From the sequence record PX104379.1: a stretch of 64,000 nt of DNA; one strand, written 5' to 3'. The notes under the pieces were generated by a model. It saw only the letters and a program-made list of their open reading frames with translations. It did not search any database and was not told the origin of the DNA. The translations under genes were made by a program, and so were the position numbers. Origin of the DNA: a phage. Positions 737-24,424 of the stretch are shown one piece after another. Positions within the stretch are counted from its first letter, which is position 1. Each line of letters starts with the position of its first letter.

Positions 737-886
737 TTACTGCATGACTGTGATAACTGTCATGATAACACGTTGAATTCCGAACGCAAGAAGACCTCCT
801 GCTACGGCTGGAACAACACCTAAACCCGCCAGTAAAATGCTACCAGATACTAATGCAGCGCTTGTAATACCAATGAATGGACTCAT
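737..886 (-). CDS. small hydrophobic protein (49 aa), start overlaps gene 52 stop (ATGA)
   Basis: MSPFIGITSAALVSGSILLAGLGVVPAVAGGLLAFGIQRVIMTVITVMQ; below ORF-track size cutoff; translational coupling to 52. Confidence 0.45.
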   Translation of the reverse strand: MSPFIGITSAALVSGSILLAGLGVVPAVAGGLLAFGIQRVIMTVITVMQ

Positions 887-2211
887 TTGATTTCCTCTAA
901 ATCTTTGGTGTATTCTGTAACTACATCAGTAGTTTTCCAATATTCGTTTTCTTCTTTTTTAGCTTTAGCTTCTTCAGCAAGTTTCTTTGCTTCATCAGAA
1001 GTCATATGAAAAATATTCATACCAACTAGTTTATCAACATAAGAAGAATACATCTCAATTTTAGAAAGTTCTTCAGTCAGTTCTTTGCGAGTTTTACCCT
1101 GTACAACGATTTCACCTGAAATTACTTTCTTAATGAAATGTGCCTTGGCAAAGGCTAAACGAAAAACTGACTCAGTTTCTTTGATTTTGTTATCAATTCG
1201 TTTTTGGACATAAGTTTTACGAACTTCAACAAAGTCTTTAATTAAATCAACTACATTATCGTAAACTTGTAGTTTTCCTTTCTCATTAATAACCGTAATA
1301 TTCTGAGAACGACGCTCAATCAACCCGAAGTCTTTCATAATTTTTGCATGGCGTTCTTCTTCATTATCGCTCAAAGAATATTCTTTACGGAATTTAATTT
1401 TAAAGCCAAAACCATGCTCACCACAAGCATCATCCCATGTAATGAAGCCTTTATCTTCAAGTGGGTCTAAGATTTTACTCACATAAGTTTCACGATCATA
1501 CTTATACGGAATCTCAGTGATATGCATTTGAGTTCGTGAAGTAAACTTATATGTTCCACGAATTTCATATTGCCCATCAATTTCAACGACTTCACCACGA
1601 AATTCTGGGAATTCTACCTTCGGTTTAGTTACTTTCTTTCCTTGAAGAGCTTGCAGTACAGCTTTCTTGACAGAAGAAACACTATGAGGAAGAATGTAAG
1701 TTGCATAGCCAGTTGCAATACCGGAAACACCATTAAGAAGAACAGTAGGAATAATAGGCAAATAGAAAGCAGGCGGAATGTGTTCTTTATCTTGATGTAC
1801 CGGAGCATATTCAGTATCTTTATATACGTTATAGAAATTTTTACTTACACGAGCAAAAATATAACGACTTGCCGCTGCTTTTTGAACGGTACGAGAACCA
1901 AAGTTTCCTTGACCATCTAACAGAGGAAAATTATTATTCCAAGTGTTAGCCATCAAAGCACCCGCGTCTTGTGCAGAGTTTTCGCCATGATGATATCCAA
2001 GGTCCGCTACACCACCTGCAATAGAAGCGAGTTTGTGAAACTTATCTTTATTTCCTCGTGCCAAATCAAGAGCTCGAGCAATAACAAATCGTTGAACTGG
2101 CTTAAATCCGTCAATCATATTTGGAATGGCACGATTTTCAACCGTGTACATAGCATAAGCCAATGCTTCATTATCAATGATACTTTTTAAATCGCGATTA
2201 TTCAGTTGCAT
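883..2211 (-). CDS. 52: DNA topoisomerase II medium subunit (GyrA-like), gp52
   Basis: 442 aa ORF, same length as T4 gp52; topoisomerase-like sequence and conserved position beside motA. Confidence 0.9.
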   Translation of the reverse strand: MQLNNRDLKSIIDNEALAYAMYTVENRAIPNMIDGFKPVQRFVIARALDLARGNKDKFHKLASIAGGVADLGYHHGENSAQDAGALMANTWNNNFPLLDGQGNFGSRTVQKAAASRYIFARVSKNFYNVYKDTEYAPVHQDKEHIPPAFYLPIIPTVLLNGVSGIATGYATYILPHSVSSVKKAVLQALQGKKVTKPKVEFPEFRGEVVEIDGQYEIRGTYKFTSRTQMHITEIPYKYDRETYVSKILDPLEDKGFITWDDACGEHGFGFKIKFRKEYSLSDNEEERHAKIMKDFGLIERRSQNITVINEKGKLQVYDNVVDLIKDFVEVRKTYVQKRIDNKIKETESVFRLAFAKAHFIKKVISGEIVVQGKTRKELTEELSKIEMYSSYVDKLVGMNIFHMTSDEAKKLAEEAKAKKEENEYWKTTDVVTEYTKDLEEIK

Positions 2212-8313: not shown

Positions 8314-8517
8314 TTAATTCATATTACGCTTAATAACTTCAGCAACTTCTAGTAGTTCGTCTTTAGTTGCGGTGTCGGATTGAATTTTATCTCTAATATC
8401 TTTAAAGCGGTTTTTAAATTCTTCGGCTTCTCCCATATCGAAAAAGCGTTGAATGATTCTATATTCTCGATGAACTGCTTTATCAAAAAGTTCTAAATTT
8501 ACTTTATATGATTTCAT
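8314..8517 (-). CDS. hypothetical protein (67 aa)
   Basis: ORF track; own early promoter. Confidence 0.5.
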
Positions 8518-8543
8518 TCCAATATCCTCATTTGCCCAATTAA

Positions 8544-8572
8544 TTATACCACATCCTTGTGGTAAAGTAAAC
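8544..8572 (-). promoter_or_regulatory. T4-type early promoter (-10 TATAAT)
   Basis: Minus strand GTTTACTttaccacaaggatgtggTATAAT; overlaps the 3' end of gene 39. Confidence 0.6.
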
Positions 8573-10392
8573 TACTGGCTCATCCATTCTTTACGAAGAT
8601 CAGCATTATCTCCCATGAGCATTTCAAAAAGCTCTTTCCAGTTCTCAGGAAGTTTAACAACATCATATACCGGATTTTGAATCATCTCACGATATTCAGA
8701 TTTTTCCAAAGAGCCAAGTCCCTTAATATAACGGATGCTATGTTTAGGTAGAGCATCTTTAGCACTCTCATATTCAGCGACTGTATAAAACCATTCTTGT
8801 TTTTTACCGACCTGAGCGATGATTACAGGAGTTTTGACAAAGCGAATTCGTCCTTGCTCAAACAATTCTGGCCAATTACTAAAAAACCCGAGCAGAGAAG
8901 GATAAATGCTTCCTAAACCATCATGGTCAGCATCGGTCATAATAGCAATATTATGATAATTCAAGTTTTCAGCTTTTTCACCAAGAACTAATCCAGTGAT
9001 TGCGCAAATATCAAACAGTTCTTTGTTTTTAAGCATATCAGCATATGACATACCCCAACTGTTGAGAACTTTACCACGCAATGGATAACCACCATGAAGT
9101 TCTTTATCACGAACATCAATAAGATATCCGATAGCAGAATCACCCTCAGTCAAGAAAAGAGTAGTATCAGCATCTTTACCACAAAGATTCGCTTTGATAT
9201 GTTTATGAACCTTAGCTTTAGAAGCCTTTTTAGCTGCTTTAGTTTCTGCTGCTTTTTCTGCTGCCAATTTACGGGCCAAAGCAGCTTCAATAATCGGCAT
9301 TAAAATTGCTTCATTATTTAGAATAGCGCGTGAAATCTTTTTAGCATCAAGTTGAATATGACTACGAATTTCACCAAAAGGAGAAGTAAGTCGTTCTTTA
9401 GTTTGAGAATCAAATCGCATGTTTTTCATATCACGGACAAACATAACGATAGTCAAACATTCTTTAACGCGTGCTTTAGTTACATCAATTTTGAACTTAC
9501 GTTTGATTTGTGGAATAAGGTCTTCACAAATATCATCCATAACACAGTCAATGTGATGGCCACCATTCTTAGTGTGAATGTTATTCACATAAGTTAATTG
9601 GCGAAATCCATCCGGTGAACGACCAACCGCAATAGAACAATTTTCTTGTTCTTGAACAATAGCATGTTCATCATACTGTCGTGCATATTTCTTAAAATTG
9701 CCCTGAACCTTTTTACCATTAAAGGTAAATTGAATATCAGGATAAACAACAGCAAGTGTCTGGAGACGATCTAGTGTAATGTCAAGATAAACTTGGGACA
9801 GCTCATTAGTTTCAAATGACATAAAATCTGGAATGAAAGTAACACGAGTTCCTTTCCATTTTCCAGGAATAGTTTCCCAGGATTTATTTTCCATGCCATT
9901 TGAACAACGAACTACAATATTATTTTGACCATCGCCAGTTTCACCGACAAACATCACAGAAAAAATGTTAGTTAAACTAGAACCAACACCATTCATACCA
10001 CCGGTGACGCGTTCTTTATCATCACCGAAGTTACCACCTGCTTTTGGAATAGTCCAAGCAGCAACTGGACCAGGAATTTCTTCACCGGTAGGTGTTTTAA
10101 CCATCGCTTGTGGAATACCGCGACCGTTATCTTCAACTGTTACCTGATTATTTTTAATGGTAACATTAATTTTATTCGCGAATTTAAACTTAGTACGAAT
10201 ACCTTCATCGACTGAGTTATCGATAATTTCATCAATAAGCTTAACAAGACCAGGTACATACTGAACACTTTCCCATTTACCAAACAGAAAGCGCTCATGC
10301 ATTTCATTAGCAGAAGAGCCAATGTACATGCCACTACGCTTTTTGATATGTTCAATATCGCTCAGAATTTTAATTTCATTCTTAATCATCAC
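8572..10392 (-). CDS. 39: DNA topoisomerase II large subunit (GyrB-like), uninterrupted gp39 including the region that is gp60 in T4
   Basis: Single 606 aa ORF with GyrB/GHKL ATPase N-terminus; in T4 this is split into 39 and 60. Confidence 0.9.
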   Translation of the reverse strand: MMIKNEIKILSDIEHIKKRSGMYIGSSANEMHERFLFGKWESVQYVPGLVKLIDEIIDNSVDEGIRTKFKFANKINVTIKNNQVTVEDNGRGIPQAMVKTPTGEEIPGPVAAWTIPKAGGNFGDDKERVTGGMNGVGSSLTNIFSVMFVGETGDGQNNIVVRCSNGMENKSWETIPGKWKGTRVTFIPDFMSFETNELSQVYLDITLDRLQTLAVVYPDIQFTFNGKKVQGNFKKYARQYDEHAIVQEQENCSIAVGRSPDGFRQLTYVNNIHTKNGGHHIDCVMDDICEDLIPQIKRKFKIDVTKARVKECLTIVMFVRDMKNMRFDSQTKERLTSPFGEIRSHIQLDAKKISRAILNNEAILMPIIEAALARKLAAEKAAETKAAKKASKAKVHKHIKANLCGKDADTTLFLTEGDSAIGYLIDVRDKELHGGYPLRGKVLNSWGMSYADMLKNKELFDICAITGLVLGEKAENLNYHNIAIMTDADHDGLGSIYPSLLGFFSNWPELFEQGRIRFVKTPVIIAQVGKKQEWFYTVAEYESAKDALPKHSIRYIKGLGSLEKSEYREMIQNPVYDVVKLPENWKELFEMLMGDNADLRKEWMSQ

Positions 10393-10416
10393 TTATCCTC
10401 GTTTGGTTTCGGGAAT

Positions 10417-10441
10417 ATTATACTCCGGTAATCATAAAGCT
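10417..10441 (-). promoter_or_regulatory. MotA-box middle promoter for gene 39
   Basis: Minus strand AGCTTTA, 12 bp, TATAAT, then GAGGA and ATG. Confidence 0.55.
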
Positions 10442-10459
10442 AAAGGCCCGAAGGCCTTT
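10442..10459 (-). terminator. GC hairpin (UUCG loop)
   Basis: aaaggcc-cgaa-ggccttt. Confidence 0.5.
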
Positions 10460-10728
10460 TATTTAAAACGAATAGTTGAATCCTTAAAGAACAGCCCAGA
10501 ACATACTGTTCCTTCTACTTTCTGCCCGGTAGGTCCAATAGCACGAAATCCAGTATGTTGGAAATCATTTTCAGAGCAACCGAACCAGTTATATCCAGTG
10601 ATTTCAATATTAGTAAAACCACTTGAAGACAAAACTTTAGTTGCATTATCAGCATCAGTACATCCTACTAAAGACACTGCTAATACTAATGCTGCGATAG
10701 AACGATTAATATATTTCATAATTTTCAC
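10459..10728 (-). CDS. putative lipoprotein (89 aa)
   Basis: Signal peptide with lipobox LVGC. Confidence 0.55.
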   Translation of the reverse strand: MKIMKYINRSIAALVLAVSLVGCTDADNATKVLSSSGFTNIEITGYNWFGCSENDFQHTGFRAIGPTGQKVEGTVCSGLFFKDSTIRFK

Positions 10729-11096
10729 TTAAATTTAATGGCTTGAAGAAGACTAATAACTCTCAAGCGGCTTCTTTCATCTTTAACTGTAAAAGAAAGA
10801 GGATCGCCAGATTTCATAGTGATAGTGCATTCAAAATCAAAATCTTCTGTAACTTCTTCGAATAGGTCAAATTCTTCATCATAAATTAGAACATTACTCT
10901 GAAAACTGTGAAGAATTTTTCCATCATTTCCAGATGCTGTACTAATCATTGTGACATTATTACCTTTCATATCTTCAACGATAAATTCGCTTGTAGATAT
11001 TACATTACTAATAGAACCATTCCTATAAATAGCAGAAAATAGATATTTCTTTTCTTCACCTTCGCGAATGCGATATTTCTTACCGATTTTAAACAT
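10725..11096 (-). CDS. hypothetical protein (~123 aa)
   Basis: ORF track; ATG at 11096 preferred over the GTG at 11102. Confidence 0.5.
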   Translation of the reverse strand: MFKIGKKYRIREGEEKKYLFSAIYRNGSISNVISTSEFIVEDMKGNNVTMISTASGNDGKILHSFQSNVLIYDEEFDLFEEVTEDFDFECTITMKSGDPLSFTVKDERSRLRVISLLQAIKFK

Positions 11097-11098
11097 AA

Positions 11099-11275
11099 TC
11101 ACCCTTTAAGTAAGTCGTAAAAACCACCATTCACATGCTTAGGAGCAGAAGGCCGACGAGTAGACAAACGATGACATTTAGGGCAAACATCATTTTCTCG
11201 TTCAGAAATCTTTTTAATTTTTTCATATTCATGCCCACAATCTTCGGATTGGCATTTATAATCATACATTGGCAT
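11099..11275 (-). CDS. zinc-ribbon protein (58 aa), FmdB-like CxxC...CxxC
   Basis: MPMYDYKCQSEDCGHEYEKIKKISERENDVCPKCH...; not in the ORF track. Confidence 0.5.
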   Translation of the reverse strand: MPMYDYKCQSEDCGHEYEKIKKISERENDVCPKCHRLSTRRPSAPKHVNGGFYDLLKG

Positions 11276-21957: not shown

Positions 21958-22476
21958 TTAATAACCTCGGTCCTGACGAGCAAAGTTCTCGGCATTTTTC
22001 AGATAATAAAGTTTAAAGATTTCTTCTGCTGTAAGACCAAGACCCTGGAACATATTCAGAACGAAATGAAGAATATCAATCATTTCAAATTTAATTTCTA
22101 ACTGGTCTTGTGGAGACAAATCAGTAATCAGAGTTTCACGACGTTCACCATGCTGCGACTTCCAAGGTTTCCATACAGCAGATGCGTCTTTTTCACCATT
22201 ACTCATACCACCAAGAGAAGTCAGAAGTTCACGGAATTCATCGTCAATATAATCTTTCTGATTACGCAACCAATCAACAACTTCACCGGCAGTAGCCAAG
22301 TCATCAGGATGACGATTATATTCAGGTTTATCTTTAGCTAAACGAATCTGCAGAGATTTCTGCATGTCAAGCATTACCTGCAGCGGGTCTTTTTCATCAC
22401 CGAGAATATCCCAATATTCATTTTGAGCTTTATCAGCGCCTTCGATCAGTTGACTACATTCGTTGAAATGTGGCAT
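21958..22476 (-). CDS. 56: dCTPase/dCTP pyrophosphatase gp56
   Basis: 172 aa versus 171 aa for T4 gp56; MazG-like. Confidence 0.85.
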   Translation of the reverse strand: MPHFNECSQLIEGADKAQNEYWDILGDEKDPLQVMLDMQKSLQIRLAKDKPEYNRHPDDLATAGEVVDWLRNQKDYIDDEFRELLTSLGGMSNGEKDASAVWKPWKSQHGERRETLITDLSPQDQLEIKFEMIDILHFVLNMFQGLGLTAEEIFKLYYLKNAENFARQDRGY

Positions 22477-22477
22477 G

Positions 22478-23128
22478 TTATTTTTCCTTTCTTATGAAGT
22501 TTTCTATCATATGTCTATAGCAGATATTAGGATAACCTGCCTTGACAGCTATTTTATTAAATTTTGTGCGCTTAGGTCTATTATTATAAACCCATAATTC
22601 ATAAAGCGCATCATAACTATTCCATATTTCTCCTCGCCTAGGATTTGGTAAACCATATCGAGGTGAATTTTTACCGCTAAATCTTCCTTTTCGGGCTTTA
22701 CTCATATTAGCCTTGGCTTCATCGGATATAATTTTACCTTTATGAGCTAGACGCATTTTGGCTTTAGTTTCTTCTGGGGTCTTTTTGCCTTTAATCCATG
22801 ACGGCTTGCCATATCTAGGATTATTTTCACCCGAGAAAAGAACAGAGTTTTGGATTTTAAGGGTTTCTATTAATCTACTTGTTAATTTAACACCTTTATT
22901 ATATCGCATTAAATTTACAGCATAATGCAATCCTCTCACATCTGGATATATTTTAGTTAATAATCTATGAGCTATAAAATGCTCACGCGCAGTTAACTCA
23001 ACAAGATTGTTTTTGTCATCTGCTCCTCCTATACATCTAGGAATTATATGATGGCGTTCTTTATATCCGCCAAGATGCCGGCATTTAGCTTTTGTAATTA
23101 AAGCCGAGTAAATTTTTTGGTAATTCAC
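22478..23128 (-). CDS. free-standing HNH homing endonuclease (216 aa), GTG start
   Basis: HNH motif YKERHHIIPRCIGGADDKNNLVELTAREHFIAH; repeated NPRYG(K/L)P modules; GTG start with AAGGA RBS. Confidence 0.75.
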   Translation of the reverse strand: MNYQKIYSALITKAKCRHLGGYKERHHIIPRCIGGADDKNNLVELTAREHFIAHRLLTKIYPDVRGLHYAVNLMRYNKGVKLTSRLIETLKIQNSVLFSGENNPRYGKPSWIKGKKTPEETKAKMRLAHKGKIISDEAKANMSKARKGRFSGKNSPRYGLPNPRRGEIWNSYDALYELWVYNNRPKRTKFNKIAVKAGYPNICYRHMIENFIRKEK

Positions 23129-23198: not shown

Positions 23199-23399
23199 AT
23201 GGTACAAAAATTAATGGCACTTGTTAATGCCATAAAAGGTAATAAAAAACGTATAGCTTTTACTATTTCTGCTATGGTAGGAATTTTACTCTGGAACTTT
23301 ATTTTATCACCAATTGCAATTGCGCATGGTGTTAATATTCCAGTAGTTACTCTTGATACATTCGTAGATCTAGCATTTGCTTTAGTTGGGTTAATTTAA
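23199..23399 (+). CDS. plus-strand small membrane protein (66 aa), convergent with gene 61
   Basis: Strong SD AAGGAGG 7 nt before ATG; two hydrophobic segments; one of the only plus-strand ORFs that does not overlap another CDS. Confidence 0.5.
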   Translation: MVQKLMALVNAIKGNKKRIAFTISAMVGILLWNFILSPIAIAHGVNIPVVTLDTFVDLAFALVGLI

Positions 23400-24424
23400 A
23401 TCTTGGCATATTTAGATAGCCGCATTTTAGCCATTAACCCCTGGGCAATATTATTTTTCATATATTCCATAATTTGTTCAGGGGTTGCACCTTCCTTTCT
23501 AATCATATCATTGACATCTTTTGATTTCCAGGGAGATTTATCCCAAAACATAACCCTTTCTCCTGCATCAACTAATTTAGTCATTCGTTTGATAGTGTCA
23601 GGGTGACGAGGTTCATTATCTAAAACCCACACTCGTCTATCTTTAAATGGAACAATTTCTAGGTCTAATTGACCACCCGTAATAGCTATACCATTTTCAA
23701 TAAAAAGTGAATCTATAGGTCCTTCTAGAACATATACATCACCATCTTTAACTCGTTCGACTCCATATATTTTTGTTGCCTCAGGATAAGCTTTGATGGT
23801 GATATATTTTTGAGGAGCATCTTTCTTTAATGCACGTCCTTGAAAAGACTCAGCTTTTCCATTAGCATTATAAATTGGAATAACAAGACGAGGCTCAGAA
23901 ATTTCCTTTTTGTATGTTCCCGGTGCTATGCTATTAACTAATTTAGGCCATTCAGTTGTAAACCAAAGATATTTCCATTTATCCTTTGGAATACAACGAG
24001 CTTTTACATATTTTATAATTGGATGGTCTTCCGCCAGTTTATCTAATCTAACACATGACGGAAGAGATTTAATTATTTTCTTCTCAAGTTGTTTAGGAAG
24101 TTCTTTAGGTTTTTCTACTGGACGACTTTTACCTTTTTCTTTTCTTATTTCAAAGATATACTCACGATATAAATCAGGTTCAAACTCCTTTAAATATATT
24201 CCGATTGGTGCATGATAGTTACAGTTATAACAATGAATATTTCCTTCATTATTATCACCATAATACCATCCACGAGCTTTATTCTGGTCGGTTTTTGAAT
24301 CTCCACAAACAGGGCATCTAAACCGTAATTTAAAAGTTGAACTATTATTTACTTGTGTGAATTTAGGTAAATGAGCTAATGCACGATACGCAAACTCATT
24401 ATCAATCCAAGGTATTGATGACAT
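23396..24424 (-). CDS. 61: DNA primase gp61
   Basis: 342 aa as T4 gp61; N-terminal zinc-binding Cys cluster; Toprim-like centre. Confidence 0.9.
   Translation of the reverse strand: MSSIPWIDNEFAYRALAHLPKFTQVNNSSTFKLRFRCPVCGDSKTDQNKARGWYYGDNNEGNIHCYNCNYHAPIGIYLKEFEPDLYREYIFEIRKEKGKSRPVEKPKELPKQLEKKIIKSLPSCVRLDKLAEDHPIIKYVKARCIPKDKWKYLWFTTEWPKLVNSIAPGTYKKEISEPRLVIPIYNANGKAESFQGRALKKDAPQKYITIKAYPEATKIYGVERVKDGDVYVLEGPIDSLFIENGIAITGGQLDLEIVPFKDRRVWVLDNEPRHPDTIKRMTKLVDAGERVMFWDKSPWKSKDVNDMIRKEGATPEQIMEYMKNNIAQGLMAKMRLSKYAKI

Follow-up and report, generated by a model that had tools for sequence, protein, structure and literature searches.

The difference between T2/T6 and T4 in the arrangement of the gene for the large topoisomerase II subunit has been known since the 1980s–90s. 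The phage DNA analysed here (sequence record PX104379.1; the whole stretch of 64,000 nucleotides is referred to below as the window) raises the question of which arrangement it carries and, if its gene is in one piece, whether it was ever in two. An earlier note on this DNA had claimed a single uninterrupted gene of 606 aa that spans the parts corresponding to gp39 and gp60 of T4. As a whole, the window is a typical Tequatrovirus sequence; over 25 kb it shares about 96% identity with several E. coli phages.

The ORF list of the window contains a single long minus-strand ORF at 8572..10392, with a GTG start and a length of 606 aa; the overlapping ORFs in other frames are all shorter than 90 aa. 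When the Pfam matches of the product were judged against the curated cut-offs, three domains were recovered: HATPase_c (GHKL ATPase) at residues 48–150 with 38.4 bits vs. a cut-off of 26.4, PF00204 DNA_gyraseB (transducer) at residues 251–385 with 51.1 bits vs. 27, and TOPRIM_C at residues 520–605 with 30.7 bits vs. 29. PHROG 543, ‘DNA topoisomerase II large subunit’, matches residues 1–605 with E = 1.6e-295. The Pfam domains and this end-to-end PHROG match mean that the ORF is a real gene and not a chance frame. Residues 2–381 align with chain 9IMJ, a crystal structure of the T6 ATPase domain. The observation of one uninterrupted large-subunit gene in this phage is thus confirmed.

The 5′ end of the gene reads GTGATG, the GTG chosen by the ORF finder (10390..10392, minus strand, GAGGATAAGTGATG) lying in frame one codon 5′ of the ATG and abutting it. 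Bacterial genes may legitimately start with GTG, which here would add one codon to the ORF; a gene of 606 aa from 10392 is nevertheless improbable. A Shine-Dalgarno-like GAGGA, whose function is putative, can be read at 10396..10400 (minus strand), at a spacing of 7–11 nt from the ATG, but only 4–8 nt from the GTG. The homologues in JK38, T2, and T6 are all annotated from ATG with 605 aa, and both T4 gp39 and the construct used for structure determination of the T6 protein begin with MIKNEIK. On account of the GAGGA spacing, these annotations, and these N-termini, translation almost certainly begins with the ATG at 10389, so that the uninterrupted gene 39 occupies 8572..10389 on the minus strand with 605 codons, its TAG stop being at 8574..8572 (minus strand). 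The figure of 606 aa is accordingly right for the ORF as listed from GTG, but not for the gene.

For comparison with T4, two genes were taken from NC_000866: gene 39, which encodes 516 aa, and gene 60, which encodes 160 aa once its annotated gap of 50 nt is left out. Residues 1–473 align without gaps with T4 gp39 1–473, 465 of the 473 being identical (98.3%). The corresponding codons (8971..10389, minus strand) encode the GHKL ATPase, the transducer, and the first half of TOPRIM with E415, and have 95.7% nucleotide identity to T4. Identity with T4 gene 39 ends after codon 473 (GCT/GCG). The local alignment to gp60 pairs residues 472–605 with 27–160, true homology beginning at N477, which is equivalent to gp60 N32. 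Codons 477–605 (8575..8961, minus strand), the equivalent of T4 gp60 32–160, encode the second half of TOPRIM and the C-terminal associated domain; 3′ of codon 494 the nucleotide identity to T4 is 98.5%. Between the two parts stand codons 474–476, Glu-Asn-Leu (8962..8970, minus strand), which are common to T2, T6, and JK38; in T4 these parental residues are missing, the MobA element starting at this point. Thus, the claim that one gene spans both parts is borne out, residues 1–473 corresponding to gp39 and residues 477–605 to gp60 32–160. The earlier note had named a C-terminus unrelated to gp60 as the result that would speak against it, and had put the gp60-derived part at ~90 aa. The C-terminus was found to be related, with 127 of 129 residues identical, over a length of 129 aa rather than ~90.

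T4 differs from this phage by an insertion of roughly 1.1 kb in gene 39. Through it, gp39 of T4 is extended by a tail of 43 aa and gp60 by a head of 31 aa; it also brings a (pseudo)mobA HNH endonuclease gene, a diverged replacement of codons 477–494, and the 50-nt untranslated gap. In the alignment, gp39 of the window has no counterpart of the last 43 residues of T4 gp39 (FEEKEDGEWF...RKNL) or of the first 31 residues of gp60 (MKFVKIDSS...SSSM). The gap of T4 gene 60 follows Gly46: GAT GGA is succeeded by UAG...50 nt...GGA and then by TTA GGT TCT. Alignment with T4 gene 60 places this point at codons 491–492, GGT TTA (Gly-Leu), at 8914..8919 (minus strand), where the sequence GAT GGT TTA GGA AGC (8922..8908) runs through in frame, interrupted neither by a stop codon nor by additional bases. 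Where the take-off Gly codon of T4 is GGA, matched by the GGA landing codon and followed by UAG, the equivalent Gly491 here is GGT followed directly by TTA. Codon 516, where remnants of the bypass had been proposed to be sought, proved to be the wrong place: the split point lies at codons 473/477 and the bypass point at 491/492, without a remnant, and 516 is the number of residues in T4 gp39 when its element-derived tail of 43 aa is counted in. In other respects the likeness to T4 is close, with the same enzyme, parts that are 98% identical, and the flanking genes rIIA, rIIA.1, goF, and cef. A separate observation concerns PHROG 19082 (‘DNA topoisomerase II’, a 45-position profile), which matches only residues 474–491 of gp39 (8917..8970) with its positions 28–45. 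Our guess is that this profile derives from gene 60 ORFs that end prematurely at the bypass stop, and so reflects an annotation artefact rather than a real family.

The T4 cassette was also sought over the whole window, by tblastn with the gp39 tail, the gp60 head, gp60.1, and the mobA fragment, and by blastn-short with the 975-nt T4 insert and the 50-nt gap. Leaving aside an unrelated HNH gene, the whole window yielded chance-level matches only, none of them at the gene 39 locus. In particular, the peptides CTE (the gp39 tail) and NTE (the gp60 head) gave only chance tblastn matches in the window and none inside gene 39, and the best blastn-short match to the 50-nt bypass DNA within the window is 12 nt long and lies outside the gene 39 position. 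No mobA insert is present between the halves of gene 39, the sole mobA-like match in the window being the free-standing HNH gene at 22478..23128. That gene is a minus-strand HNH/NUMOD3 homing-endonuclease ORF of 216 aa, assigned to PHROG 655 ‘homing endonuclease’ with E = 1.3e-59; 62% of residues are identical in a 21-aa match to the T4 mobA fragment. It is flanked by a 172-aa ORF (21958..22476) and a 342-aa ORF (23396..24424), which presumably are the gene 56 dCTPase and the gene 61 primase. In the phage collection, 56 of the 1157 records with any match have it at 90% identity or more; such a sporadic-looking distribution is what a mobile gene would be expected to show.

A 10-nt match to the bypass hairpin, GCCTTCGGGC at 10446..10455, was rejected, being simply another UUCG-loop hairpin located 5′ of gene 39. 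The region just 5′ of the gene (10417..10456, minus strand) reads as the hairpin GGCCTTCGGGCC with a UUCG loop, then TTTAGCTTTA, with TATAAT 12 nt further on. We take this layout to resemble a T4 middle promoter, with a MotA box at about -30 and a -10 hexamer, behind a weak terminator; the consensus promoter scan did not flag it because there is no -35 hexamer. At the other end of the gene, a strong sigma-70-like promoter match (8543..8571, minus strand; TTTACT-17-TATAAT with an upstream TG, 10/12) begins directly after the stop codon, ahead of rIIA.1 (8314..8517) and rIIA. Two ORFs lie between gene 39 and a zinc-ribbon ORF (11099..11275, Pfam Zn_ribbon_8): one of 89 aa with a lipoprotein-like N-terminus (…LAVSLVGC…) at 10459..10728 and one of 125 aa at 10725..11102, both on the minus strand, matching PHROGs 902 and 622 (function unknown). 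The ORFs of T2, T6, and JK38 in this place resemble those of the window, whereas in T4 it is taken by the short 39.1 and 39.2 alone.

Gene 39 comprises 1818 nt and 605 aa in this phage, T2, T6, and JK38, and the four are gapless and colinear at 96.5–99.3% nucleotide identity (96.6% to T2 and 96.5% to T6). As in T2 and T6, the gene is situated between rIIA.1 and a 39.1-like ORF, and its product belongs to a two-subunit enzyme of gp39 and gp52; the difference from T2 and T6 amounts to about 3.4% of gene 39 nucleotides, nearly all synonymous. The protein is identical to T6 gp39 (YP_010067157.1; structures PDB 8YLU, 8YO1, 8YO5, 8YO7, 8YOD, 8YON, and 9IMJ) at 604 of 605 residues, with Q526 here, as in T4 and T2, and H in T6. 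There are two amino acid differences from T2 gp39. The product of JK38_00003 from the Shigella phage JK38 (MK962755.1) is the identical protein, its 13 differences in 1818 nt all being synonymous, and the JK38 locus is 98.8% identical over 2.5 kb. The gapless alignment with T2/T6 and the absence of all T4 cassette components uphold the T2/T6-like arrangement without bypass that had been claimed. These comparisons support the assignment of gene 39 to the T2/T6-type uninterrupted form, with no gene 60, mobA, or bypass gap.

A present-day single ORF does not by itself tell how the gene came to be so, and the allele at the insertion site is informative in this respect. According to Manning & Atkins (bioRxiv 10.1101/2022.08.31.505936), the MobA element of roughly 1.1 kb inserts at aa 466–473 and ends just after D490/G491, with a further 9 nt in the T4 clade, while about 55–75 nt of the ‘parental’ gene are deleted. 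The deleted stretch is replaced by a diverged copy, ‘homR’, which is 67–81% identical and holds the T2 MobA nick site, and the 50-nt gap shields invaded genomes from re-cutting (bioRxiv 10.1101/2022.08.31.505936). For T2, MobA nicking and transfer of the cassette were shown by Bonocora et al. 2011, as summarised in the same preprint. The segment that MobA insertion replaces comprises 54–64 nt; in the window it corresponds to codons 477–494 (8908..8961, minus strand) and includes the TOPRIM residues D486, D488, and D490. Its 54 nt are identical to T4 at 38 positions (70%, against 95.7% and 98.5% on either side) and to T2 at 52. Both the identity to T4 and the 3′ boundary agree with the homR range of 67–81% and the D490/G491 (+9 nt) end point given in the preprint. 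As in the analysis of Manning & Atkins, this drop in identity with T4, together with 52/54 identity to T2, identifies the parental allele. We therefore hold with great confidence that gene 39 is the ancestral, never-invaded (‘parental’) form of the Tequatrovirus gene, whose product would work with gp52 and which contains an unoccupied MobA homing site. Judged from its similarity to T2, this site is probably sensitive to MobA.

The two differences from T2 within the 54-nt segment are synonymous: Thr483 is ACC vs. ACT, and Leu492 is TTA vs. CTA. At Leu492, T6 and JK38 also have CTA, and the TTA base of the window matches T4 just after the landing codon. It is conceivable, but very doubtful, that TTA-492 is a short gene-conversion scar of a MobA homing event that was aborted, or that it alters the sensitivity to MobA. 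Far likelier is a synonymous substitution that arose independently, and both variants are most likely ordinary polymorphisms.

Very improbable, in our opinion, is a ‘hit and run’ history, according to which the MobA element once split gene 39 and was later excised, with the single ORF restored. A single ORF taken alone fits both histories, and re-fused genes do exist in a clade of Aeromonas phages (bioRxiv 10.1101/2022.08.31.505936). However, in such genes CTE and NTE, which the element encodes, persist as an insertion (bioRxiv 10.1101/2022.08.31.505936), and, unlike the re-fused Topo2L of Aeromonas clade 7 described by Manning & Atkins, gene 39 of the window has no CTE/NTE-homologous insertion. 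Its length is that of T2 and T6, the alignment is gapless, the tblastn matches to CTE and NTE are at chance level with none in gene 39, and the 54-nt segment carries the parental rather than the homR allele. The gapless 605-aa colinearity with T2/T6 and the lack of CTE/NTE similarity exclude this history. The parental form is thus the preferred reading, with no result of the analysis speaking against it, and since the MobA element is not inserted, neither a subunit split nor a ribosomal bypass is needed in this phage.

What the undivided gene is predicted to make is a 605-aa polypeptide of about 68 kDa that combines the GHKL ATPase, the transducer, and a complete TOPRIM domain. The residues named for T6 as metal-binding (E415, D486, and D488) and as contacting DNA (R438, K440, D490, and K556) (PMC11461880) are all present in gp39 at the T6 numbers; the E...DxD metal-binding motif of TOPRIM is intact, with D486, D488, and D490 forming DxDxD. 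The gene 52 of the GyrA-like partner subunit (883..2211, minus strand, 442 aa; Pfam DNA_topoisoIV, E = 1.3e-76) is also intact and lies 6.4 kb from gene 39 on the same strand in the window, and its product matches the gp52 chains of PDB 8YO3 and 8YLU over the full length with E of about 1e-296. Together, the two proteins would assemble into (gp39)2(gp52)2, an A2B2 type IIA topoisomerase. In this enzyme, the N-gate operated by ATP and the half of the cleavage centre formed by TOPRIM would come from gp39, and gp52 would contribute the DNA gate together with the catalytic tyrosine. Cryo-EM structures of the T6 enzyme of gp39 and gp52 exist for the apo state as well as with bound DNA and bound drug, and this enzyme relaxes DNA (PMC11461880). 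From the 99.8% identity to T6 gp39 we infer an ATP-dependent strand-passage activity for gp39 of the window, and the gp39/gp52 enzyme would be expected to relax DNA with ATP and to support phage DNA replication. Alignments of gp39 extend over its full length to human TOP2A/B (E of about 1e-59) and to ParE. The GHKL ATPase, transducer, and TOPRIM domains are shared with the cellular type IIA enzymes (GyrB/ParE and the N-terminal half of eukaryotic Topo II). Unlike these, the phage enzyme has a separate small A-type subunit, the 442-aa gp52, and relaxes only (PMC11461880).

The differences in gene 39 from T2 and T6, being nearly all synonymous, indicate that the gene has been under strong purifying selection. 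That gene 39 is a decayed, non-functional copy, with topoisomerase supplied elsewhere, is a reading for which no support was found and which can practically be dismissed, given an intact ORF whose protein is identical to that of JK38, 61 and 64 nucleotide differences from T2 and T6 that lead to only two and one amino acid changes, respectively, and intact catalytic residues.

The undivided gene is widespread. A 2.5-kb query around gene 39 retrieved 561 records of the phage collection. Of these, 522 match at least 80% of its length at a single contiguous place, for the most part with 95–99% identity. The T4-specific insert was found in only 43 records of the same collection (T4 isolates, T4T, RB55, RB59, vB_EcoM_112, and a few others), T4T, RB55, and RB59 being listed with an annotated mobA. 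The uninterrupted gene 39 is the rule, and the T4 form is the exception. Every element of the finding on gene 39 is already in the literature: the MobA/bypass cassette was published as a mobile element by Bonocora et al. 2011, according to papers citing that work, a comparative survey of parental vs. invaded genes appeared in 2022 (bioRxiv 10.1101/2022.08.31.505936), and structures of both enzyme forms in 2024 (PMC11461880).

The importance of the present result lies mainly in correct annotation: the phage has one topoisomerase II large subunit of 605 aa, and there is no gene 60, bypass, or mobA to seek. With its MobA target still intact, the phage would, in a mixed infection, receive the cassette rather than donate it. 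The intact T2-like MobA homing site is mildly useful in its own right, since homing experiments could use this phage as a naive recipient.
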